A DNA stretch of 64,000 nt, from contig CAZTJJ010000002.1 in NCBI GenBank assembly GCA_964614065.1, positions 6,878 through 70,877 of the forward strand, in the 5' to 3' direction. Made by a program: the position numbers and the translations under genes. Below, one piece after another: positions 2,092-64,000 of the stretch. Position 1 is the first letter of the stretch. Every line of letters starts with the position of its first letter. A model generated the notes under the pieces. The model made no database searches, was not told the DNA's origin, and saw only the letters and a program-made list of their open reading frames with translations. Source of the stretch: an uncultured Thermotogae bacterium (GTDB lineage: Bacteria; Bipolaricaulota; Bipolaricaulia; M55B111).

Positions 2092-2907
2092 GTGATTAGC
2101 TTGTTGAAGTTTAGGTCTTATTCCGTTGCAGTTTTGCTTTGTTTGTTTATATTATCATTTAGCATCGCCACAGTCGGGAGTGAAGTTACCGACAAGCTTA
2201 CACGAGTGATACAATTAAAAGTCGGATTGGATTCAGACCTTTTCCGGGTAATTGAAACGAAATACCGAGGCGAAAGGTTGATCCTTATAGTTGTTTATGG
2301 ATCTGAACGGGCATTGAACAGCGACCTCGGCGATCCCGTTAAAGCGGCTTTCAGAAAATATAAGGGTCAAAATCCTCTAGGGATAACCGTTCTTTCTAAA
2401 AGTAAATCAACAAAGTTTCACCCGTATGCGCTCAGGACCGTTAGAGGGGACGAAAAATTATCAATACAGAACGTTACAGGGATAACCGAGGGTTTCTTGG
2501 AAGGTGAAATGCCGAAAGAAGTTCCAATAGGCGAAGAAACTTTCTGGGGGAGCATGGGTGTGGTTACACTAGGAAAAGATTTTCCTGTGAATTCACCTTT
2601 CAAGGTACATTATGGAACTAGAAGTGCTTCCTTCTCACCACAAACAAGTACACAAACTCAAGTTGCTTCAATGGAGGAGCAATCAGAAACTCAGGACACC
2701 GGCAAACTATCCCCAACTGTCAACAAGCCATCGACTACAAACAACCCAGGAAATGTAGGCAATAATACTGACAACCAATGTCAATCAAAGAATCAGTGTC
2801 AAACCTCGACTTCACCATCAAACTGTGGTCAAACGCAGGGATCGGGCCTATTACTAGGTGGAATTGGGGCATCACTGCTGATGCTAACGCTCTCGCTTCT
2901 TTTTTAG
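2092..2907 (+). CDS. Hypothetical exported protein with S/T/N/Q-rich linker and C-terminal membrane anchor
   Basis: N-terminal hydrophobic signal-like segment, low-complexity linker, three Cys, then a terminal hydrophobic tail GSGLLLGGIGASLLMLTLSLLF. Confidence 0.75.
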   Translation: MISLLKFRSYSVAVLLCLFILSFSIATVGSEVTDKLTRVIQLKVGLDSDLFRVIETKYRGERLILIVVYGSERALNSDLGDPVKAAFRKYKGQNPLGITVLSKSKSTKFHPYALRTVRGDEKLSIQNVTGITEGFLEGEMPKEVPIGEETFWGSMGVVTLGKDFPVNSPFKVHYGTRSASFSPQTSTQTQVASMEEQSETQDTGKLSPTVNKPSTTNNPGNVGNNTDNQCQSKNQCQTSTSPSNCGQTQGSGLLLGGIGASLLMLTLSLLF

Positions 2908-2943
2908 AGAAATAAAACAGGCTCAAGAGAAAAAATTAACATA

Positions 2944-2981
2944 ATATAGGGCGGAAAACCTAAGTGTTTTCCGCCCTATAT
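2944..2981. terminator. Bidirectional terminator-like hairpin between convergent genes
   Basis: Perfect 16-bp inverted repeat ATATAGGGCGGAAAAC / GTTTTCCGCCCTATAT. Confidence 0.75.
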
Positions 2982-2999
2982 GTTCTTCACATAAGATAG

Positions 3000-3380
3000 C
3001 TATTCAGAAGTAAGTTTTTCGTATTCTTCCTCTGACAGAAGGCCAGCGAATTCCTCTTCGTCTTCAATGTCCAATTCCACTAGCCAACCATCTTCCCAAG
3101 GAGACTCATTGATCAATTCTGGTGCACTCTCTAAATCTTCGTTTACCGACGTTACCACACCGGAAATAGGAGCTTTCACATTTGAAACCGATTTAACTGA
3201 TTCTACCACAACCAATTCATCACCCTTTGCGAACTCCTCACCCGTCTCGGGCAACTCAACAAAAACTATGTCCCCTAGCTCATTCTGAGCAAAATCAGTT
3301 ATTCCAAGCCTTGCCACGTGACCCGTCTTTTCTACCCAATCGTGATCTTCTGTATATTTCAGATCTGTCGGTTTAGCCAT
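3000..3380 (-). CDS. gcvH: Glycine cleavage system H protein
   Basis: GITDFAQNELGDIVFVELP and lipoyl-Lys motif VVESVKSVS, INESPWEDGWL; start placed at the ATG after SD GAGGAGG. Confidence 0.95.
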   Translation of the reverse strand: MAKPTDLKYTEDHDWVEKTGHVARLGITDFAQNELGDIVFVELPETGEEFAKGDELVVVESVKSVSNVKAPISGVVTSVNEDLESAPELINESPWEDGWLVELDIEDEEEFAGLLSEEEYEKLTSE

Positions 3381-3581
3381 AATACCTCCTCTTGCCAAGA
3401 TAATATGATACTATCGAATTCTCCCCTGTTAATTCAACTTATGTCCAGATATTCTCGAGAAGATTAACACCACGTGATCAAACCTTTGACCTCCATAGCT
3501 GAAAACAGGGAAGCAATAATTGATTACAGTCGTCATTGCAACAAATAAACTCATTAAGTATATTTACTCGGTGAAATCTAC

Positions 3582-55621: not shown

Positions 55622-57259
55622 TTAAGTTTCCGGCTTTGGCGGATAATGAATGTAACCCTGATCGTCCCACCAGTAACCTGCATCTTCAAGAATATCGCGG
55701 GCTTTATCCAAATCGAACTCGTATGGTTTGACCACTGGATTATTCCAGAATTTGTTTGCGGGGGCTATCGCAGATGCACCCTTTTCAGCGTGACCCTCAA
55801 AAACTTGCTCTATAATTGTGTCTTTGGGAATTGCATGTGCTAAGGCTTTTCTAAAGGCCGGATCGCTGGTCGGTTTCTTGGCACAATCGTGATTTATGAT
55901 GTAGAATCCAAAGTTGGAAAACTCTCCAACCTCGATATTTGGATTTCCAGCTAGCTTGTCCGCTTCCAGCGCTTTCAGATGAGTGGTAACCAAATCTAAC
56001 TCGTTTGATTGCATTGCCCTTACGATACCGCTCAAGTTACTATAAGCCAACCGGACGTAGCCATTGATAGTCGGTGGATGAAAGTGTTCCTTATTCGCCG
56101 AGAGCACGTACTTCGATCCCGGTTCCCATGCTTCAAATTTGAACGGACCACTCCCTATCCACTCTTTAGGAGTCCAGTCCTGCGGTTTCTCCACATCCAC
56201 TTCACCGGGGATCTTGCTCCAGATGTGCTCCGGCAAAATGAACAATCGAGTAAGGAAGAAACCTTTGTAAGGAGCAAAAGGCTTGGTGAACTTTAAACCC
56301 ACAGTATACTCGTCGACCGCTTCCGCTCCTTCTATGTAGCTAAGCGATGAGGCGTAATACGGAGCATCCCATTTCTTCAGATAATTCACCGTAAAAGCTA
56401 CATCCTCTGCAGTTACAGGTTCACCATCGTGAAACTTGTGGCCCTCCCGGATAGAGATGTTTACCTCTGTATCGCTCACTACCTCAATGTCTTCCGCCAA
56501 CCAGGGTATAGGTTTTAAATTCTTATCGAATACGTACAGTCTATCATAGATAAGGCGGAGAGCTCTAAAGTCAGTAGCAAATATTTGTCCAAAAGGATTT
56601 AGGGTCTGAATCCTGCCAGGGTAACCACCCCGTAAAACCTGCCTATTTTTAGGTTCGATCTCAAGAATATTCCAGAATGACGCATATCCTTCCCCGGGCA
56701 GTGGAACAGGATTTTTGAAATTATCGGACCGGTAAGCGTTCATGACGGTAGAATTGAGGATGATATTCGAGGGTTGCTTTTCGTGAACGAGCTTTTGCGC
56801 CTCGTATATTATCTCTCTTCTGCGTTCAGTGTCGTATTCCTCGCGTTCGGCGTCCAGAAGAGCATCCACTGCGGCATTGCTAAACTGGGTGTCATTAAAT
56901 GCACCCTGTGGCTTTGACCGAAACAACCTATAAAGGAAGTAATCTGGGTCAAGTCTCTGTGGAGATCCTGTCCACCAAGTCATGTTCCAGTGCCACTCAT
57001 GAGGAACTTCGTACTCCCGGGCAATCATTGTTTTGTATTCGAGAGTACTGAGTTTCATCTCCACGCCGATTTTTTTAAACTCGTCCTGAATAAGTCGTGC
57101 AGTTTCTACAATCAATGGATTGGCTTCAGCTGTAAACGTTATCAGCTTTAACTCGCCGATACGGCCATCGGCCTCCTCGTCCGCTAAAGCCGCTCCCCCA
57201 AACACTAAAAACAATGACAGAACAAGAATCACAAAAAAGCTTGTTTTCAAACTCTTCAT
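55622..57259 (-). CDS. Peptide ABC substrate-binding protein (family 5)
   Basis: Signal peptide, PWLAE, FHDGEPVTAEDVAFT, IGSGPFKF, FRKALAHAI.K, YEFDLDKARDILEDAGY. Confidence 0.92.
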   Translation of the reverse strand: MKSLKTSFFVILVLSLFLVFGGAALADEEADGRIGELKLITFTAEANPLIVETARLIQDEFKKIGVEMKLSTLEYKTMIAREYEVPHEWHWNMTWWTGSPQRLDPDYFLYRLFRSKPQGAFNDTQFSNAAVDALLDAEREEYDTERRREIIYEAQKLVHEKQPSNIILNSTVMNAYRSDNFKNPVPLPGEGYASFWNILEIEPKNRQVLRGGYPGRIQTLNPFGQIFATDFRALRLIYDRLYVFDKNLKPIPWLAEDIEVVSDTEVNISIREGHKFHDGEPVTAEDVAFTVNYLKKWDAPYYASSLSYIEGAEAVDEYTVGLKFTKPFAPYKGFFLTRLFILPEHIWSKIPGEVDVEKPQDWTPKEWIGSGPFKFEAWEPGSKYVLSANKEHFHPPTINGYVRLAYSNLSGIVRAMQSNELDLVTTHLKALEADKLAGNPNIEVGEFSNFGFYIINHDCAKKPTSDPAFRKALAHAIPKDTIIEQVFEGHAEKGASAIAPANKFWNNPVVKPYEFDLDKARDILEDAGYWWDDQGYIHYPPKPET

Positions 57260-57680
57260 TTAAACCTCCTGTTAAAATACTTTCAGATTTTCTTTGTTGA
57301 CATTACCTGAATTTCAACTGTAAAAATTTGACAATCTACAGGTTTCTAGTATAAATTTATAAAAGTTAATCACCTCCTTTACCTTAACTTTACGATCTCA
57401 TTATATTCTATCAAGTGTCAAGATCAACTTGGGCTACGACTAACCCCTTTAGCCAGATCACTCGGTATGCCTATCGAGCTGTTCGTTCTTTTACCGTAAA
57501 AAAACGTCCATCTTAAGCCAAGAAACATTAGGGGGGACATTTTTGGAAGGGTTTTCATTCCAGGCTTAAATTCAACCTGCTGGACCACTTGTGGAGTTTC
57601 TAGCCGAGGAAAAAATAGGGTGGTCCCTCTGAAAAGTAAGTCAACCGGGGAGGAAAGATTTACGAAGCTACTGTGAAGGC

Positions 57681-57887
57681 TTAGCCTTGGTCAACCATTT
57701 GGTTCAAAGATTTGCCGAATGATGGTTTTGTAATGCCCTTTTCCGCAATGATCCCAGGGATGTTTTCTGCAGGGGATACGTCAAAACCCGGATTGTAAAC
57801 ATCTATTCCTTCCGGAGCTATTCTTGTGTCATCTATTTCCAGAACTTCATCTGGAGAACGCTCTTAAATTTCAATTCCGTCAAAGAG
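57681..57887 (-). pseudogene. mtnA: C-terminal fragment of methylthioribose-1-phosphate isomerase (MtnA/eIF2B-like) with an in-frame stop
   Basis: Hand translation: [67 protein letters not shown], matching the MtnA signature IEER..EEV...IAP.G..VYNPAFDVTP..LI..IITEKG. Confidence 0.85.
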
Positions 57888-58667
57888 CTAAAGTGTTTCC
57901 CCAAGTATTGTCAAATAGAAATCTTGAACGCTAGCTAATTTGTGGAGTTTTTCTTCATCTTTGATCGTAACTTTGCTGTCATGGGTGGAGATAGTTTCCG
58001 ATTCTTTTAACCTTTTAATTAATCGTCTAAGAGTTTCGGCTGAGACACCCGTCAAGTCCGCGAGTGTGTGTCGGGGTAATTTTAGATCTATTTGACTTCC
58101 TGATTCGACCTTTTTACCATACTTCTCATTGAAACCCAGGAGCAAAGTAGCGAAATTTTGCAAGGAACCCTCCGAAGTTTCTCGAGTGAGTTTAAACTCC
58201 AGCATGGCCACCTCTCTAGCAAACCACATACACAAATCATATAAAGCGTTCGGGCAATTGGTAACAAAGTCGTTAAACGCCGAGGCCTCGATGGAGATCA
58301 ACTCGGAATCTAAAACAGCACGAGCAAATTGGATGTTGGTACGCTGATTAGGAAGAAATAATACTTCTAACCCGAACCACTCCCTCGAGCCTAGAAATCT
58401 TAGAACTCGCCTTTTTCTTGGTTTTGAATACTTGCCTATCTTGACAAGACCACTACGGACGATATAAATACTCGAAGAAAGCGATCCTTCTTGCACAACG
58501 AGGTCCCCACCAGAGTATTGAACCAAGAAAATGGAATCACTAAGTTTCTCTATTTCATCTGAAGGCACATCTTTCAGGGAAGAAGAAAGAAATGAAATAA
58601 TCTGGCTGAAATCCGGTTTCTTCCTGTCTGAGGTAGTATTATTATCGATCTTATTCCTTTCTGACAT
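57888..58667 (-). CDS. Crp/Fnr family regulator, copy 2
   Basis: Cupin-like cNMP domain (VVQEGSLSSSIYIVRSGLVKI) and C-terminal HTH (LADLTGVSAETLRRLIKRLKE). Confidence 0.92.
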   Translation of the reverse strand: MSERNKIDNNTTSDRKKPDFSQIISFLSSSLKDVPSDEIEKLSDSIFLVQYSGGDLVVQEGSLSSSIYIVRSGLVKIGKYSKPRKRRVLRFLGSREWFGLEVLFLPNQRTNIQFARAVLDSELISIEASAFNDFVTNCPNALYDLCMWFAREVAMLEFKLTRETSEGSLQNFATLLLGFNEKYGKKVESGSQIDLKLPRHTLADLTGVSAETLRRLIKRLKESETISTHDSKVTIKDEEKLHKLASVQDFYLTILGETL

Positions 58668-58831
58668 TTAATTAGAGGAAGTCTTTTTCTATAGCATGAA
58701 CTAAAAACACCAATGCTTCTAGCATTTCTTAATTTTAATTATGTAACCTGCATATAACTTAATCAATATTTTTGCTTTAAAGATATTGCTTTAAAAAAGA
58801 AGGTGACAAAAAAATTTCAGGCATTATTAAC

Positions 58832-59578
58832 TCAAATGAAATTGTTCAGCTTCTTTGTGTCATTGATGCAAATTTTCTCATCTTTGAGAGACAGAAATCC
58901 GTTTTTTTCAAGCTTGTTCAAAGTTCGACTTATTGAACCTTCAGATACTCCTAAAATGCCGGCAAGGACTTTTCTTTGTAACTTGAGGCATACACGATGT
59001 CCCGCGTTCTTTCTGGTACCCCTCTGATTATAGATCTTAATTAATAACTTTGCTAAACGTTTGTCTGTGGTTAGGAAACCTTCGTTGAGTAGCTTGTATT
59101 CAAATTCTTTTAGGCTCGAAGAAAGATAGTCACACATATCATGAAATGCGTCGGGAGTATGATAGAGAAAATTAATGAATCTACTTTTCTCCAAAAACAC
59201 TAGATCCACGTCAACTATACACCTTGCGTAACCAAATCGGGATTTGCTATCCTGACCAAATACAGTTTCTTCTCCAATGAGATCACCCGGCCCCAGCAAC
59301 TTGAATATTCTACTACGTCCAGTTTCCCCCTTAAGTTGTTTTCCATAAACAACAACACCGTTGCATATTAGATAAATTCCGTCCGAGAGTGATCCCTCCT
59401 GAAATAGAAGGTCTCCTTGGTGATAGTTTACTGGAAGCATTATCTCTTCTAGCTCTTCGGTTTGTTTTTGATTTAAGCTCGGAAAAATATTATAGTGCAA
59501 AGGCACTTCAGATGATTTTTGCCATTCCACTTGATCTTTATTGATTTCCGAGTCTTTGGTATTTATCTGAAAATTCAT
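58832..59578 (-). CDS. Crp/Fnr family regulator, copy 1
   Basis: LFQEGSLSDGIYLICNG, LGPGDLIGE...SR, HTH LAGILGVSEGSISRTLNKLEKNG. Confidence 0.92.
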   Translation of the reverse strand: MNFQINTKDSEINKDQVEWQKSSEVPLHYNIFPSLNQKQTEELEEIMLPVNYHQGDLLFQEGSLSDGIYLICNGVVVYGKQLKGETGRSRIFKLLGPGDLIGEETVFGQDSKSRFGYARCIVDVDLVFLEKSRFINFLYHTPDAFHDMCDYLSSSLKEFEYKLLNEGFLTTDKRLAKLLIKIYNQRGTRKNAGHRVCLKLQRKVLAGILGVSEGSISRTLNKLEKNGFLSLKDEKICINDTKKLNNFI

Positions 59579-59606
59579 TTTACCTATTTTTTTATATTAT
59601 TTGGAT

Positions 59607-60152
59607 TCAAGTACTGAGGTTTTTATCAGAGTTATCGGGTTCCCATATCTTGATAGGAGCGTAATGGACGGAGGTGAGCACAGCTCCGTAACCTCGCCTG
59701 CTTTTGATATCACTTTCGTCAACCAACTGTACATCAAGAAAGCCTGTGTAGTCGTCCCCAAAGAACTTGGTTCCTAGCAACTGGTTATAATAAAACTCAA
59801 GTTCACCGCTGAGCGTGGTTAGTAATAACTCCAACTCCTCTACCTTTTTCGTGGTTAAAATAATTAAATCAATATCAGACGCAGGTCCCGAGGAGTTTTC
59901 TACGGAACTCCCATGTATATATATGCCTTTAAAGTTATTACTTAAAGATCCTATATAACGACTGATCTGATGTGCGAGTCCATATCTAAAATAACTGTGT
60001 GCCGACGAATCTTCCTGTCTTAGCAGTTGAATAGCTTCTTCTCTGTCTCGGTTAATTTTCTCCGTACAAAAGTCAATTGCTCCGGCAAAAGTTACTTCAC
60101 AATCAAAGTGAAGCCCTGTAGTAGTACCAAGTAACCCATCATTAATCAGCAT
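59607..60152 (-). CDS. Stand-alone Pol-beta-superfamily nucleotidyltransferase-domain protein
   Basis: GIYIHGS.....GPASDIDLIIL (hG[GS]x9-13DhD) plus a third acidic residue in LDVQLVD; helical N-terminal extension. Confidence 0.75.
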   Translation of the reverse strand: MLINDGLLGTTTGLHFDCEVTFAGAIDFCTEKINRDREEAIQLLRQEDSSAHSYFRYGLAHQISRYIGSLSNNFKGIYIHGSSVENSSGPASDIDLIILTTKKVEELELLLTTLSGELEFYYNQLLGTKFFGDDYTGFLDVQLVDESDIKSRRGYGAVLTSVHYAPIKIWEPDNSDKNLST

Positions 60153-61242
60153 AACTACCGCTCCAAAAGTTTTTATCTACCTCTTTCAGTTGAGTGTCTG
60201 TAGTCTGGATTGACCGGTGAACTGCCAGTGAGTATGCACTTGTCTTAATGGATATAGAATTTTCCCGGGAATAGCTCCAAACGTCCCGGAATAGATCCGT
60301 CACTAGTTGAAGGCTTTTTCTTTGAATCTCTTTGCGTCCAAGGTGGCAATAGCTATTGTGAGTTAGCCATTCAGTATAAAACTGTATAAGGTTCGGTGCA
60401 GACACTACGATGTCTGGTATAATTTCAATCTCTCTTTCTGCAAGAATCAGTTGCGCTTCTGGAGTAATTATTCCATTCCTGCCTTCTATAATAGTGTGCG
60501 TCCGAATTCTTCTCGCATTCAGCATGGATACTTTTTTTTCGGTCAAGATGAATACATCTACCAATTGAGAATATCCATTCTTCGTGGGCAAAACAGCGAA
60601 TTTATCCTCAGGTAGTTGTTTAAGAATGCCATTGGTGAGATCATTGCCCAAGTCACTAGTTATCCTAATCCGCTCTTTATTCGGGTATTTGTAGGCTTTA
60701 ATTAGCTCGATTAACTTGGCTAAGCATTTAGTAGATAGATATGAGCCTGAAATATCACCAGTTCGAAAAGGCTTCACTCTTAAAAGTTTGTTGTGTGAGC
60801 CCAAGCATGAAAAAATAGATTCCTGTAAGCTATCTTCAAGTTTTAGTTGTTCAAACGAGGACAAAAAATCTTCCCGATATTTGATTCCAACCAACAGGAA
60901 TTCAAAGGGTATGCGGAGCAACCTAGCCTGCAAGTGTACCCCAAGAGCCTTCGCTTTGAGCCAATCAAGATAAACCCCAGGATCGAAAATTATCCCTCCG
61001 AGAATACGTTTTTTGGGACCTCTATGTACAATTGCATGCCCACTTAGTACTTTCGTACCGCCGTTCAACCCTTTTATTGGTAGTACACAGGACAGTTCGC
61101 GGTAAGGTTTCTCCAGTACTTGCCGCTGATATTCATCGATCTGGTTCTTACGACAGATGTACTTGAGCTGCGATTGTAATATACGGTAGGGATTCTCGTC
61201 ACGGGGTAGTACCGACTTTTTTCTTTCTCCTTTCGTTTTCAT
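60142..61242 (-). CDS. Degenerate Glu/Leu/Phe/Val dehydrogenase paralog (pseudoenzyme)
   Basis: Aligns by eye with the neighbouring GdhA (ENPY, P.RE..LPIK..G.T..L.G, GGI.F.P; IIEGRNGIITPEAQLILAE..I.IIPD..EW) but lacks the catalytic and NAD-binding motifs. Confidence 0.8.
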   Translation of the reverse strand: MKTKGERKKSVLPRDENPYRILQSQLKYICRKNQIDEYQRQVLEKPYRELSCVLPIKGLNGGTKVLSGHAIVHRGPKKRILGGIIFDPGVYLDWLKAKALGVHLQARLLRIPFEFLLVGIKYREDFLSSFEQLKLEDSLQESIFSCLGSHNKLLRVKPFRTGDISGSYLSTKCLAKLIELIKAYKYPNKERIRITSDLGNDLTNGILKQLPEDKFAVLPTKNGYSQLVDVFILTEKKVSMLNARRIRTHTIIEGRNGIITPEAQLILAEREIEIIPDIVVSAPNLIQFYTEWLTHNSYCHLGRKEIQRKSLQLVTDLFRDVWSYSRENSISIKTSAYSLAVHRSIQTTDTQLKEVDKNFWSGSYAD

Positions 61243-61720
61243 TTATGTCCTCATTGCAAATCGACTTAATTTTGTGACTGAGCTTCTATTTCAAATAAAT
61301 TTAACGCTAATTTAGAGTAAAACGATACGATATTACTCAATGTGACCCTCCAATGTCGTAGGAAAAAATAGAGTTAGTTCATGTGCAAATATCGATCATT
61401 TGACTGGGTAATAACACACGGGTGAGGGAGAAGGATGATATATCTCGAACCAGATTATCCAAAGTCTAACCTCGATTAACCAGATAGGTTTTGGGACAGA
61501 AGCAAATATATTCAACAAATCATGTAGTAACGCGAGGGATAGAAATCCTTAAAGAGAATGTAAGCTATTTGTTGAATGTCATTTTCTGGAAAGCAAGTTA
61601 GTTCTATCATCTGATTGTTAACCTCAATAAAGTCTTTAGAGGTGTTACTACACTACAAAGTAAAGACGAAGCAGGACAGCAAGTGATAGATATATATTCG
61701 GTCCATAGGAGATGATTCAG

Positions 61721-63025
61721 ATGGTCAGTAGAACTTCAACAATACCAAGAGAAAAACCACAAAAAGAAGAAAACCCTTTTGAAGTCGCAAGAAAACAGCT
61801 TGACGAGGTCGCATCGTTATTGGGATTGGATGGTCCCGTTTATCAACTGTTGAGAAATCCTATGAAGGAATTCCACTTTACAATACCCGTAAAAATGGAC
61901 TCCGGTAAGACCGAGATCTTTGATGGTTACAGGGTACAATACAACTCTGCGCTTGGTCCTACAAAAGGTGGTATAAGATTTCACCCAGGGGAGACACTGA
62001 ACACAATCAGAGCGCTTTCCGCCTGGATGACATGGAAGTGTGCCCTCTTGAATTTACCTTACGGCGGCGCGAAAGGTGGAGTAGTATGCAACCCTCAAGA
62101 AATGAGCGATGATGAACTAGAGAGGTTATCAAGAGGATACATAAGGGGGCTGAGTTCGCTAATTGGTCCTCATAAAGACATACCTGCACCCGACGTTAAC
62201 ACGAACCAGCAAATAATTGCTTCCATGATGGACGAATTCTCTAAACTAAAAGATTACAGCTGTCCCGGGGTTATCACAGGCAAGCCACTTTCTGTTGGTG
62301 GTTCTATAGGAAGAGATGACGCTACTGCCCGTGGCGGTATGTACGTGCTTCGTAATTTTGCCCAAAAGGCTGGAACAGACCTAAGAGACGCAACCGTTGC
62401 AATACAGGGGTACGGAAATGTGGGTTCTCACGCTCACAAATTAGTAGAAGAGCTGTTTGGCGCAAAAGTCGTAGCACTAAGCGATGTAGAAGGGGCAATT
62501 TATTCAAAGGAAGGCCTAAAGTACGAGGATATATCCAAGAATCTGAAAAGCCCCGGTGTTTTTTCTAAAGAAGTTCAGAGAGCAGAACTGCTGGGTCGTG
62601 GGAATGATGGAAATAAAGAACTTTTAAAGCTACCAGTAGACATACTAATTCCTGCTGCAATAGAAAACGTTATCACCGACGAAAACGCAGAGGACGTAAA
62701 TGCGGGGGTTATTTTAGAGTTGGCAAACGGACCTTTAACCCCTGAAGCGGACGAGATTTTACATGAAGCAGGAACCCTGATAATTCCAGATTTTCTAGCA
62801 AACGCAGGTGGGGTTACGGTTTCTTACTTTGAATGGGTTCAAAACCTCACGGGTTATTACTGGGATATTGATAGAATCCATGAGAGGCTGGATAGAAAGA
62901 TGACTGCCGCGTTTAACGAAGTATACGATACCAGTATTGAGAAAAACATTACCTATCGACAAGCAGCCTACGTGGTTGCGGTACAAAGAGTTGTCGAAGC
63001 AATGAAATTCCGAAAATGGGTATAG
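61721..63025 (+). CDS. gdhA: Glu/Leu/Phe/Val dehydrogenase, most likely glutamate dehydrogenase
   Basis: GPTKGGIRFHP, MTWKCA, GGAKGG, DIPAPDVNT, ITGKP..GGS.GR..AT, IQGYGNVG, ELANGP, PDFLANAGGVTVSYFEWVQN; second ATG preferred from SD spacing. Confidence 0.95.
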   Translation: MVSRTSTIPREKPQKEENPFEVARKQLDEVASLLGLDGPVYQLLRNPMKEFHFTIPVKMDSGKTEIFDGYRVQYNSALGPTKGGIRFHPGETLNTIRALSAWMTWKCALLNLPYGGAKGGVVCNPQEMSDDELERLSRGYIRGLSSLIGPHKDIPAPDVNTNQQIIASMMDEFSKLKDYSCPGVITGKPLSVGGSIGRDDATARGGMYVLRNFAQKAGTDLRDATVAIQGYGNVGSHAHKLVEELFGAKVVALSDVEGAIYSKEGLKYEDISKNLKSPGVFSKEVQRAELLGRGNDGNKELLKLPVDILIPAAIENVITDENAEDVNAGVILELANGPLTPEADEILHEAGTLIIPDFLANAGGVTVSYFEWVQNLTGYYWDIDRIHERLDRKMTAAFNEVYDTSIEKNITYRQAAYVVAVQRVVEAMKFRKWV

Positions 63026-63050
63026 ACAGATTGTCTGAAAAAAATTGATC

Positions 63051-63201
63051 GGACAAACAACTCCGGATCAAGGGTTTTCCGGAGTTGTTTGTCCTCAGTT
63101 ACTTCTCGTTGGAGTAACAGAATTTGTGGCTCACATAACAATGTATGTGGGCCACAACTCTTTTTGAGCGGGAGATTCATTAACCCGTTTAGTTGTTTGT
63201 C
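63051..63201. other. Cluster of strong hairpins downstream of gdhA (includes the likely terminator)
   Basis: 17-bp perfect stem 63051-63094, 8-bp stem 63098-63118, 14-bp stem 63124-63157 followed by CTCTTTTT. Confidence 0.7.
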
Positions 63202-63661
63202 AAACCCGTCATTTGAGCTCACACTTTCTTCGATCATTTGGGGTTCCTCCTCTTTTACAAATTCATTCTACTGGAGGATACCCCATTTTTAGATTAATAC
63301 ACTACCTATTATAGGATATGAGGATTGCTAAAACGGTGCAATTACTAGCCAATTTATCACCTATCTAGCTAACAAATGGGGTTTATATATCAGTTGAAAA
63401 AGAAATAATTATGCTTGTGGTTGTCGTTGGCAAGTAATTTATACAGAGAACGGACACCTAGCAGACTGTAGAGTATAACAACTAGAAACCGGAATTAGAA
63501 AATAAAATTTTGCACAATCAATTAGTTATGCTCAGAAAGCCTCTTGACAAGGGAATTTTAATAAGAGTACCCAATAGTCTAGATATATAGGTTCAACCAA
63601 TTTTTGCATGGAAATTGCGAGTCTATAAGAATTGATTTTCTTATAAACAAGGAGGCAAGCC

Positions 63662-64000
63662 ATGAACGAGAGATTAGAAGAAGCCTTTAACAAAAAGAAA
63701 GCCACATACAGATGTGGTAACTTTTGGATTTCATCTACGATCTTACTGTGCTGGATCGGTTTCATAATATTTGCATTTACGGTGTGGTTAACCGGATGGC
63801 ATACTGGCTCTAATTTCGTCTATCACCCCTCTTTAACAACTCCAGACAAACAAGGGCTGGCATCTTTTTTCTACACTATCGCTCTTTTTGCGATTGCGGG
63901 AAGTACAGTAAGTCATATACTTGGGATATTTTATAAGTTCTGGCAAATTGAAAGAGATCCCACCATCAACCAGGATATCGACATAATAGAATTTCTTAAC
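63662..64000 (+). CDS. Hypothetical membrane protein, 3'-partial
   Basis: SD AAGGAGG then ATG; open to the window end; MNERLEEAFNKKKATYRCGNFWISSTILLCWIGFIIFAFTVWLTG..., two hydrophobic segments. Confidence 0.75.
   Translation, partial: MNERLEEAFNKKKATYRCGNFWISSTILLCWIGFIIFAFTVWLTGWHTGSNFVYHPSLTTPDKQGLASFFYTIALFAIAGSTVSHILGIFYKFWQIERDPTINQDIDIIEFLN

Follow-up and report, generated by a model that had tools for sequence, protein, structure and literature searches.

A glutamate dehydrogenase paralogue without active-site residues and its putative nucleotidyltransferase partner in an uncultured Bipolaricaulota bacterium

Gene content of the locus

We analysed a stretch of 64,000 nucleotides from an uncultured Thermotogae bacterium, placed in the Bipolaricaulota by GTDB (assembly GCA_964614065.1, contig CAZTJJ010000002.1, positions 6,878 to 70,877 of the forward strand; hereafter the window, with positions counted from its first letter). 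The gene under study encodes a 366-residue relative of glutamate dehydrogenase (GDH), referred to here as pseudo-GDH. It lies between the gene of a canonical GdhA, which is transcribed in the opposite direction, and a gene encoding a nucleotidyltransferase (NTase) of the MNT type, which is followed by two genes for regulators of the Crp/Fnr type. The constituent genes are:

60142-61242, minus strand: pseudo-GDH, 366 aa; the catalytic and substrate-binding lysines, the aspartate, the GxGxxG motif and the specificity serine are all replaced
61712-63025, plus strand: canonical GdhA, 437 aa, divergent from pseudo-GDH; GPTKGG, MTWK, GGAKGG, PAPD and GYGNVG are all present
59607-60152, minus strand: MNT-type NTase (Pol-beta superfamily), 181 aa; its ATG lies within the last codons of the pseudo-GDH gene
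58832-59578, minus strand: Crp/Fnr regulator 1 (Crp1; cNMP-binding domain and HTH_Crp_2), 28 nt 3' of the NTase gene
57888-58667, minus strand: Crp/Fnr regulator 2 (Crp2), 164 nt 3' of Crp1

A GDH fold without an active site

The open reading frame (ORF) of pseudo-GDH starts with ATG, is preceded by a GAGGA Shine-Dalgarno sequence and comprises 366 codons with no internal stop. The protein is 71 aa shorter than GdhA (366 versus 437 aa), so that the preliminary description of this DNA, which gave an uninterrupted frame and a difference of about 70 aa, holds in both respects. A BLASTP comparison of pseudo-GDH with the adjacent GdhA yields two collinear blocks only, comprising residues 8-153 (25% identity, E 8e-13, 59 bits) and residues 228-347 (30% identity, E 5e-14, 55 bits) of pseudo-GDH. 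The Pfam family ELFV_dehydrog (PF00208) is recognized with 48.6 bits (cutoff 23.4, E 1.1e-12), but only positions 98-237 of the 241 in the profile, its C-terminal part, are matched. For ELFV_dehydrog_N (PF02812), which represents the N-terminal dimerisation domain, the score remains below the cutoff (17.4 bits, cutoff 25.3), and a profile built from the pseudo-GDH family described below matches residues 27-126 of the Thermotoga GDH with 39 bits. For the NCBIfam equivalog GdhA_Arch, with a cutoff of 750 bits, pseudo-GDH scores 88 bits and the neighbouring GdhA 552 bits.

The loss of the active site was read from an alignment with the adjacent GdhA and three other real GDHs. The segment GPTKGGIRF is replaced by KKRILGGIIF, with a leucine at the position of the substrate lysine, and MTWK is replaced by VHLQ, with a glutamine instead of the lysine that binds the substrate carboxylate. 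The catalytic lysine of the motif GGxKGG (K125 in Clostridium symbiosum numbering) is likewise a leucine (YGGAKGGV to FEFLLVGI), and the corresponding position is L, P or V across all members of the pseudo-GDH family. The segment IPAPDV has no alignable counterpart, and the predicted local distance difference test score (pLDDT) of the structural model is below 50 at this point. The dinucleotide-binding motif IQGYGNVG corresponds to TSDLGNDL, and the stretch that aligns with GxGxxG is unconserved across the family (TDSGGS, SSEASS, STGKTP, ASKINS and ASNPDP). Each of the substitutions relative to GdhA that had been listed in the preliminary description is found in this alignment; the replacement of NAGGVTVS by SAPNLIQF, and hence the loss of the NAGGV..S motif, comes in addition. 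As judged from the aligned sequences, identical losses in every family member are well beyond chance. Most of the 71 missing residues belong to two segments. The interdomain linker GKP..GGS.GR..ATG.G has lost about 26 aa, and a further 33 aa or so are absent behind strand 2 of the Rossmann domain.

An AlphaFold2 model of pseudo-GDH computed on the family alignment has a pLDDT of 69.6 and a predicted template modelling (TM) score of 0.72. The C-terminal half reaches a pLDDT of 85-93, domain I lies at 50-70, and the lowest values are found at the former catalytic loops. A Foldseek search with the model returns hexameric GDHs with TM scores, relative to the query, of 0.66-0.73 (approximately 0.70) at E values of about 1e-16. 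Sequence and model together characterize pseudo-GDH as a predicted non-catalytic protein that keeps the GDH fold. Domain I and the C-terminal helices remain, and the Rossmann domain is shortened.

The pseudo-GDH family

Relatives were identified by an exhaustive scan of 1.84 billion cluster representatives; a word-indexed search with the single protein had given one close relative (P0001). The scan returns five full-length relatives of 352-376 aa as well as the fragments P0018 and P0020. The five full-length proteins match pseudo-GDH end to end with 29-38% identity (E 3e-66 to 1e-35), and real GDHs appear only from E 6e-22 onwards, matching in two separate blocks. The ORF is therewith found at full length in six lineages, mutually 27-47% identical, and a very distant partial copy represents a seventh lineage (L024). 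In total the family comprises about eight clusters at 50% identity, all of them from uncultured organisms.

Members of the family share the motifs IKSQLxYFYRE, (F/Y)DP, HLQARL, IPFEP..GI, LAE..I..PN and SLTSAAFALA, and 29 alignment columns are invariant. The residues Y28, E44, S51, L100, L233, P283, R319 and S329 are invariant in the family and absent from every aligned real GDH. The hidden Markov model of the family does not rank any neighbouring GdhA above other real GDHs: the GdhA of L012 is found at about rank 27, the GdhA of L014 at about rank 32, and the GdhA of the window is outside the best 40 matches listed. The ranking speaks neither for nor against a local tandem duplication.

Purifying selection and truncated copies

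Selection was estimated from a comparison of the window with a sister locus from the Logan assemblies (L001-L005, six contigs; 86% DNA identity, 243 shared codons). The Nei-Gojobori method gives dN = 0.110 and dS = 0.343, corresponding to omega = 0.32 (bootstrap 95% interval 0.21-0.50; Fisher p = 1e-7 for pN versus pS), and the differences are distributed over the three codon positions as 29/25/49. No indel is found in 729 nt of the pseudo-GDH gene, compared to 11.1 expected at the rate of the flanking intergenic region (7 indel runs in 458 aligned nt), a result with a probability of P(0) = 1.4e-5. The probability that 103 random substitutions leave the frame free of stop codons is 0.005. For the same pair of loci the comparison gene Crp2 has an omega of 0.09. 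We note that the value of 0.32 is an average over both branches, including the truncated copy of the sister lineage; if the latter drifts freely, the intact lineage would be constrained more strongly than this value suggests. Four other contigs carrying the allele of the window differ by 0-1 nt in the pseudo-GDH gene and are uninformative with respect to polymorphism. As judged from these sequence comparisons, pseudo-GDH is under purifying selection, and the constraint is real but relaxed. It must be called weak because pseudo-GDH is the fastest-evolving gene of the cassette: between the window and L012 the amino-acid identity is 81% for GdhA, 78% for Crp2, 59% for Crp1, 52% for the NTase and 38% for pseudo-GDH.

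The sister lineage lacks the following segment:

58742-60513, no strand assigned: segment absent from the sister lineage L001-L005 (1772-bp deletion)

The deletion removes codons 244-366 of pseudo-GDH, the whole NTase gene, Crp1 and part of the spacer. Its junction reads CTGAATGCG/TAATTA, such that a TAA stop codon arises exactly at the junction. A second incomplete copy is found in L022, where an ORF of 198 aa (1119-1715, P0020) adjoins an intact gdhA. Homology to the family ends at about codon 149, beyond which the copy continues into unrelated AT-rich sequence; the copy may be a second independent truncation or a chimera in a contig of 1.8 kb.

Gene loss is also seen on the other side of Crp2. 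At 57670-57876 (minus strand), 3' of Crp2, about 208 nt of the window share 86% identity with the 3' end of a gene of the IF-2B family. The sister locus L001 harbours an intact gene at the corresponding place after Crp2 (2534-3577, 347 aa, MtnA/eIF-2B-like), and the window has lost about 1.08 kb there, namely the first 850 nt or so of this gene and the spacer. Window and sister locus thus each carry their own deletion of 1-2 kb adjoining Crp2, the loss of the IF-2B-family gene in one case and the loss of 1772 bp in the other.

Both the truncated copies and the remnant at 57670-57876 could be taken to indicate that pseudo-GDH is a decaying pseudogene, that is, a dead duplicate of gdhA whose frame is open by chance; its rank as the fastest-evolving gene of the cassette and its truncation in the L001 lineage, possibly also in L022, would be expected in this case. 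This explanation, however, has to account for an omega whose upper bootstrap bound is 0.50, for a frame free of stop codons and of indels, although some 11 indel events would be expected, and for ORFs of 352-376 aa kept in six lineages whose identity drops to 27%, with invariant residues of their own. Conservation of the Shine-Dalgarno sequence, of the tight junction to the next gene and of a non-coding element upstream argues in the same direction. We consider a pseudogene extremely improbable, and for the family the explanation is effectively refuted. The proposal of the preliminary description that a pseudoenzyme is held by purifying selection is therefore borne out, the dN/dS between the window and the sister locus being significantly below 1 rather than near it, in line with the six full-length lineages and the family-specific residues. 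The decay of homologs, which the same description had named as evidence to the contrary, is partly seen, in the sister copy, truncated at codon 243, and possibly in L022.

Architecture and conservation of the cassette

In the following, cassette loci are six loci, namely the window, L012/L016, L014/L015, L010, L013 and L011. The first four of these have the gene order pseudo-GDH, NTase, Crp, Crp, and the short contigs L013 and L011 contain the beginning of the identical order. Across loci the NTase has 174-188 aa, the first Crp/Fnr protein about 250 aa and the second about 257 aa. The locus L012/L016 belongs to Candidatus Bipolaricaulota bacterium isolate M55B111. The identity of 78-81% that Crp2 and GdhA of the window share with L012 suggests the same phylum for the window, and the cassette is probably one of Bipolaricaulota. 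A scan of GTDB genomes gave a locus in a Bipolaricaulota metagenome-assembled genome as the sole match to the cassette; among the scans of metagenomes, one was empty and another added only L021-L023. Contigs with the locus derive from JGI samples 3300026197 and 3300009061 and from ENA ERZ27257089.

The junction between pseudo-GDH and NTase in the six cassette loci ranges from a gap of 9 nt (L014) to an overlap of 38 nt as called (L010); the four remaining loci have overlaps of 7-11 nt. The pseudo-GDH gene of the window ends with T-ATG-CTG-ATT-AA, which contains the ATG of the NTase; the overlap is 11 nt, and a GGAG is located 8 nt upstream of this ATG. The NTase gene abuts or overlaps pseudo-GDH in all seven lineages with downstream sequence, and a Crp/Fnr gene is next where the sequence extends. 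Crp1 is present in all loci with enough downstream sequence. Crp2 is the most conserved gene of the cassette after GdhA (71-85% identity between lineages); GdhA itself is 75-81% identical between cassette-bearing lineages. The NCBIfam models do not identify Crp1 or Crp2 as NtcA (28-32 bits, cutoff 245), and both are generic Crp/Fnr proteins.

The gene gdhA is divergently adjacent in four of the five lineages in which this can be checked (window/L001, L012, L014/L015 and L022). The distant locus L024, whose NTase is about 30% identical, contains a GDH-derived ORF (3-905) that overlaps the NTase gene (902-1462) by 4 nt; further on, a Crp-type gene begins (1496-1687). The GDH-derived ORF is partial (300 aa) and 23% identical to the family over the C-terminal 122 residues; hhalign assigns it to the pseudo-GDH family with a probability of 96.5%, and ELFV_dehydrog matches with 23.2 bits. 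The motif of the L024 NTase is intact (HGS..SDID). Its presence even in L024 shows the pair of pseudo-GDH and NTase to be more ancient, and less variable, than the association with gdhA. The constant partner of pseudo-GDH is the NTase, not gdhA.

The other genes of the window are ordinary bacterial housekeeping genes, including those for SecA, Prs, L25, ClpC, RadA, DisA and AccA. We also note a gene at 55622-57259 (minus strand) that encodes a substrate-binding protein of 545 aa of an oligopeptide/nickel-type ABC transporter. NCBIfam models match this protein in two stretches. Behind the signal peptide, the first 215 residues or so look like the C-terminal lobe of such proteins, and the N-terminal start with ..TLNP.. 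that is usual for them follows only thereafter; the protein may be permuted or fused.

The adjoining nucleotidyltransferase

The residues H80-G81-S82, S92-D93-x-D95 and D140 are invariant in the six NTases of the cassette loci and constitute the catalytic signature of the Pol-beta superfamily. The protein conforms to the MNT pattern hG[GS]-x9-13-DxD with a third carboxylate, and it is recognized by the Pfam families Polbeta (27.1 bits, cutoff 26.9) and NTP_transf_2 (23.4 bits, cutoff 21). Judged by the intact motif, the NTase is predicted to be catalytically competent. Its nearest relatives in NCBIfam and PDB are MntA-type antitoxins, an MNT protein of Sulfolobus and aminoglycoside NTases; the NCBIfam model of MntA itself gives 22 bits (cutoff 60). 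In the structural model (pLDDT 79) three N-terminal helices precede the NTase core. This helical extension of about 65 aa has invariant residues of its own, namely F22, A25, F28, C29, H52-S53 and F55-R56-Y57. The closest structural matches, all of them weak, are MntA/HepT complexes (MntA being a protein-AMPylating antitoxin), HI0073 and ANT enzymes.

The similarity to MntA might point to a module for toxin-antitoxin action or phage defence, built like the MNT-HEPN systems but with the GDH-like protein in place of the HEPN toxin. The NTase is nearest to MntA-type antitoxins by sequence as well as by structure, it has weak, marginal PADLOC matches to the candidate systems PDC-S09 and PDC-M05A (E of about 5e-4), and the two genes overlap. 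Pseudo-GDH, however, has no match among the defence systems of PADLOC and adopts the fold of a GDH, not of a HEPN protein. Among genomes whose GdhA proteins are 75-81% identical, the cassette keeps its place amid chromosomal housekeeping genes, mobile-element genes do not flank it, and relatives of the NTase sit within operons for glutamate synthase. Such a module is in our view very improbable.

The latter relatives were obtained by a profile search. The distant homologues P0162 and P0163, with 29-39% identity depending on the alignment, are encoded directly 3' of split glutamate synthase operons (FAD/Fer4, FrhB-like, GXGXG and Glu_synthase), and in L017 an NTase homologue directly precedes a canonical GDH of 416 aa. 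The homologues of about 180 aa that follow glutamate synthase operons are located as follows:

L017, 5891-6445: NTase homologue
L018, 6001-6534: NTase homologue
L019, 3929-4462: NTase homologue
L020, 1391-1924: NTase homologue

Adjacency of the NTase family to genes for glutamate synthase or GDH is an independent link to glutamate metabolism. Pfam recognizes nothing in the glutamate-synthase-linked homologues, and the catalytic motif GS..DxD is absent from them (GT..SIN and CT..GIN), which suggests that they are pseudo-nucleotidyltransferases. As the motif is lost in these distant homologues, the constant feature of the family as a whole may be binding and not catalysis.

The divergent intergenic region

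The region between pseudo-GDH and gdhA, together with the 3' end of gdhA, contains the following features:

61243-61711, no strand assigned: intergenic region, 469 bp; 84.7% identity and 7 indel runs in the comparison with the sister locus
61327-61353, minus strand: non-coding element TTGG-N9-TTGA[GC]-N6-TCGT, situated some 85 nt before the start of pseudo-GDH
63124-63157, plus strand: terminator-like hairpin of 14 pairs followed by a T-run, 3' of gdhA

The core bases of the element at 61327-61353 are invariant in all six loci with upstream sequence (window, L001, L012, L014, L011 and L013). The flanks of the element cannot be aligned between distant lineages, and the element is not palindromic. 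Its spacing from GG to TTGA is one base wider than in the -24/-12 promoter of sigma-54. We regard it as a candidate promoter or operator.

The region at 61243-61711 has no match to an Rfam family and contains no ORF of note; an Rfam scan of 57000-64000 likewise gives matches at chance level only. Sites resembling sigma-70 promoters are not enriched (13, compared to 14.0 ± 4.2 in shuffled sequence), and palindromes of the Crp/Fnr/NtcA type that are conserved across loci are not found in the divergent promoter. The hairpin after gdhA is the only convincing terminator. The spacer is unusually long, with a similar length in other loci (444-468 bp), and a second conserved block (AAATGAC..CAAAT..TAC) is found closer to gdhA.

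Comparison with known systems

Dead paralogues of metabolic enzymes that serve as regulators are already known, among them the GdhA of Thermus and the prozymes of trypanosomes. The closest precedent is Thermus thermophilus, whose GdhA is described, in the portions of the literature considered here, as a catalytically inactive regulatory subunit of a GdhA/GdhB hetero-hexamer (Tomita et al. 2010, 2011, 2019; PDB 3AOE). A second pseudoenzyme, APRTh, joins the complex in Thermus and parallels the theme of an accessory protein at the cassette of the window. The preliminary description had invoked Thermus GdhA as a regulatory, low-activity partner of catalytic GdhB, and this statement is correct. 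Pseudo-GDH and Thermus GdhA have in common that a GDH paralogue without catalytic activity is encoded beside an active GDH, and both are plausible regulators of GDH. The two differ in their degree of degeneration. Thermus GdhA is a full-length protein of 419 aa (3aoe_E) that matches the GdhA of the window over its whole length with 284 bits, compared to 59 + 55 bits for pseudo-GDH, such that the earlier wording "far more degenerate than the Thermus case" is apt. Pseudo-GDH is 71 aa shorter than the GdhA of the window, is without substrate and dinucleotide sites, and does not have the near full-length, close similarity that marks a Thermus-type subunit. In addition, it abuts an NTase gene and is divergent from gdhA; the portions considered do not mention an NTase partner for Thermus GdhA. 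On these sequence features pseudo-GDH should not be filed as a Thermus-type member.

A regulatory subunit after the Thermus model may nevertheless be envisaged, with pseudo-GDH and GdhA forming a hetero-hexamer under allosteric modulation and with the NTase and Crp genes as mere neighbours; the Thermus-type subunit confers allosteric activation by leucine. Domain I and the C-terminal helices, which build the oligomers of GDHs, are precisely the blocks that pseudo-GDH has kept, gdhA is adjacent in four of five checkable lineages, and the Thermus pair provides a precedent. Beyond the difference in bit scores and the 71 aa of deletions, it stands against such a subunit that adjacency to gdhA is not universal, whereas the tight junction to the NTase gene is, even in the distant L024, and that pseudo-GDH and gdhA are divergent and not part of one operon. 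We consider a subunit of this kind doubtful.

With respect to the NTase, the closest systems are MntA-HepT, a type VII toxin-antitoxin system, and HI0073/HI0074. In both, a minimal NTase of the Pol-beta type with GS..DxD forms a tight two-gene unit with a partner that is not an NTase. MntA AMPylates the protein encoded beside it in the operon, and the titles of PDB entries include a tri-AMPylated HEPN toxin with MNT. The partner in the window differs in that it has the fold of a GDH and is not an RNase with a HEPN domain; furthermore, the NTase of the window has the N-terminal helical extension with its own invariant residues, and the cassette is chromosomal and linked to glutamate metabolism.

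The control of nitrogen assimilation involves further Pol-beta NTases, namely GlnE (glutamine synthetase adenylyltransferase) and GlnD (PII uridylyltransferase), both of which nucleotidylylate a tyrosine. GlnE of E. coli is weakly represented among the structural neighbours of the NTase (3k7d, E 0.045). GlnE and GlnD, however, are large multidomain enzymes that act on glutamine synthetase or PII, with no detectable specific sequence relationship to the NTase of the window, and we know of no pseudoenzyme adaptor for either of them. A modification of GDH by the NTase of the window is purely hypothetical.

Dead paralogues of metabolic enzymes kept as regulators are also represented by ADLP of Thermus, a pseudoenzyme resembling alanine dehydrogenase that regulates a CoA transferase encoded nearby (bioRxiv 10.1101/2025.10.31.685773), and by the prozymes of trypanosomatids, such as the AdoMetDC prozyme (PMC5201418). 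ADLP differs from pseudo-GDH in that it keeps NAD(H) binding as a sensory function, whereas GxGxxG is conserved in no member of the pseudo-GDH family. The prozymes activate their own paralogue by heterodimerisation (PMC5201418), a mode of action that would be hypothetical for pseudo-GDH. A description of the pseudo-GDH family or of a GDH-linked NTase was not found in a literature search.

A possible role of the pair

The reading that we tentatively favour is that of a regulatory cassette linked to glutamate, in which pseudo-GDH is the non-catalytic partner of the NTase. Pseudo-GDH would be the obligate protein partner of the NTase, in place of the HEPN-type subunit of other two-protein MNT systems. 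The GDH-like scaffold would serve protein recognition, either by docking on GdhA or co-assembling with it, or with pseudo-GDH itself being the modified regulatory subunit. Y19 and Y28 of pseudo-GDH, both invariant in the family, would be candidate acceptor residues. Like MntA acting on HepT, the NTase would attach a nucleotide to a partner protein and thereby tune the activity of GDH; the two Crp/Fnr proteins would form the transcriptional arm. GlnE acting on glutamine synthetase and GlnD acting on PII offer an analogy for the role of the NTase. That the proteins interact physically, that a modification takes place and on which target, and that the activity of GDH responds to it are our inferences. 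Pseudo-GDH is unlikely to sense glutamate, 2-oxoglutarate or NAD(P)H, given that the residues for substrate and dinucleotide binding are gone and the positions are unconserved; the sensor that the preliminary description had proposed as an option is disfavoured on this ground.

Several observations weigh against a partnership of this kind. The N-terminal domain, part of the proposed scaffold, is modelled with only moderate confidence (pLDDT 50-70), and the structural similarity of the NTase to known proteins is weak (best E 3e-3). No gene of the cassette evolves faster than pseudo-GDH. The sister lineage L001-L005 retains gdhA and Crp2 despite the deletion, and the module is dispensable there. 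The lineage L011/L023 has no gdhA upstream; a gene of the PAC2 family is found instead. Finally, the NTase homologues linked to glutamate synthase have lost GS..DxD.

The two proteins might also form a nucleotidyltransferase that has no relation to GdhA. The subunit with the GDH fold would then bind the substrate or regulate the enzyme, the target would be a small molecule, Crp or another protein, and the proximity of gdhA would be left over from the duplication from which the pseudo-GDH gene arose. MNT proteins usually work with a second subunit, and both HI0073/HI0074 and MntA/HepT are among the structural neighbours of the NTase. The constancy of the junction with the NTase gene in all lineages, including L024, is consistent with such an enzyme; the invariant residues specific to the family suggest a new surface or pocket, and with ADLP there is a precedent for an inactive amino-acid dehydrogenase that controls another enzyme. 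It is hard to explain along these lines, however, that distant NTase homologues are again found beside genes for glutamate synthase and GDH, and that the adjacency to gdhA is kept across lineages whose pseudo-GDHs are only 27-38% identical. An enzyme without relation to GdhA is therefore unlikely in our judgement.

Returning to a non-catalytic partner in a glutamate-linked cassette, its most specific form would be a post-translational control system for GDH, in which the dead paralogue brings a minimal NTase to the GdhA hexamer or is itself the nucleotidylylated subunit within it. We put this forward with little confidence. If true, GDH would gain a covalent switch resembling that of GlnE and glutamine synthetase, and the NTase homologues without motif beside glutamate synthase would be non-catalytic cousins.

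Implications

Within the portions of the literature compared, Thermus GdhA is the only bacterial example of a regulatory dead paralogue of GDH; it is mildly degenerate and has no enzymatic accessory. New in the pseudo-GDH family is that, as far as the aligned sequences tell, every catalytic and ligand-binding motif has been stripped, that the protein has nevertheless been retained for a long time, and that it is tied to an NTase with an intact motif and to Crp/Fnr regulators. The family also constitutes a test case for the erosion of an enzyme fold under continued selection. By analogy to the systems discussed above, the pairing with an NTase suggests a form of control of glutamate metabolism that is as yet undescribed. 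Should the pair act on GdhA, a function would be assigned to one MNT-type NTase among the many orphans, and covalent nucleotidylylation would be added to the means by which bacteria balance carbon and nitrogen at the node of 2-oxoglutarate and glutamate.

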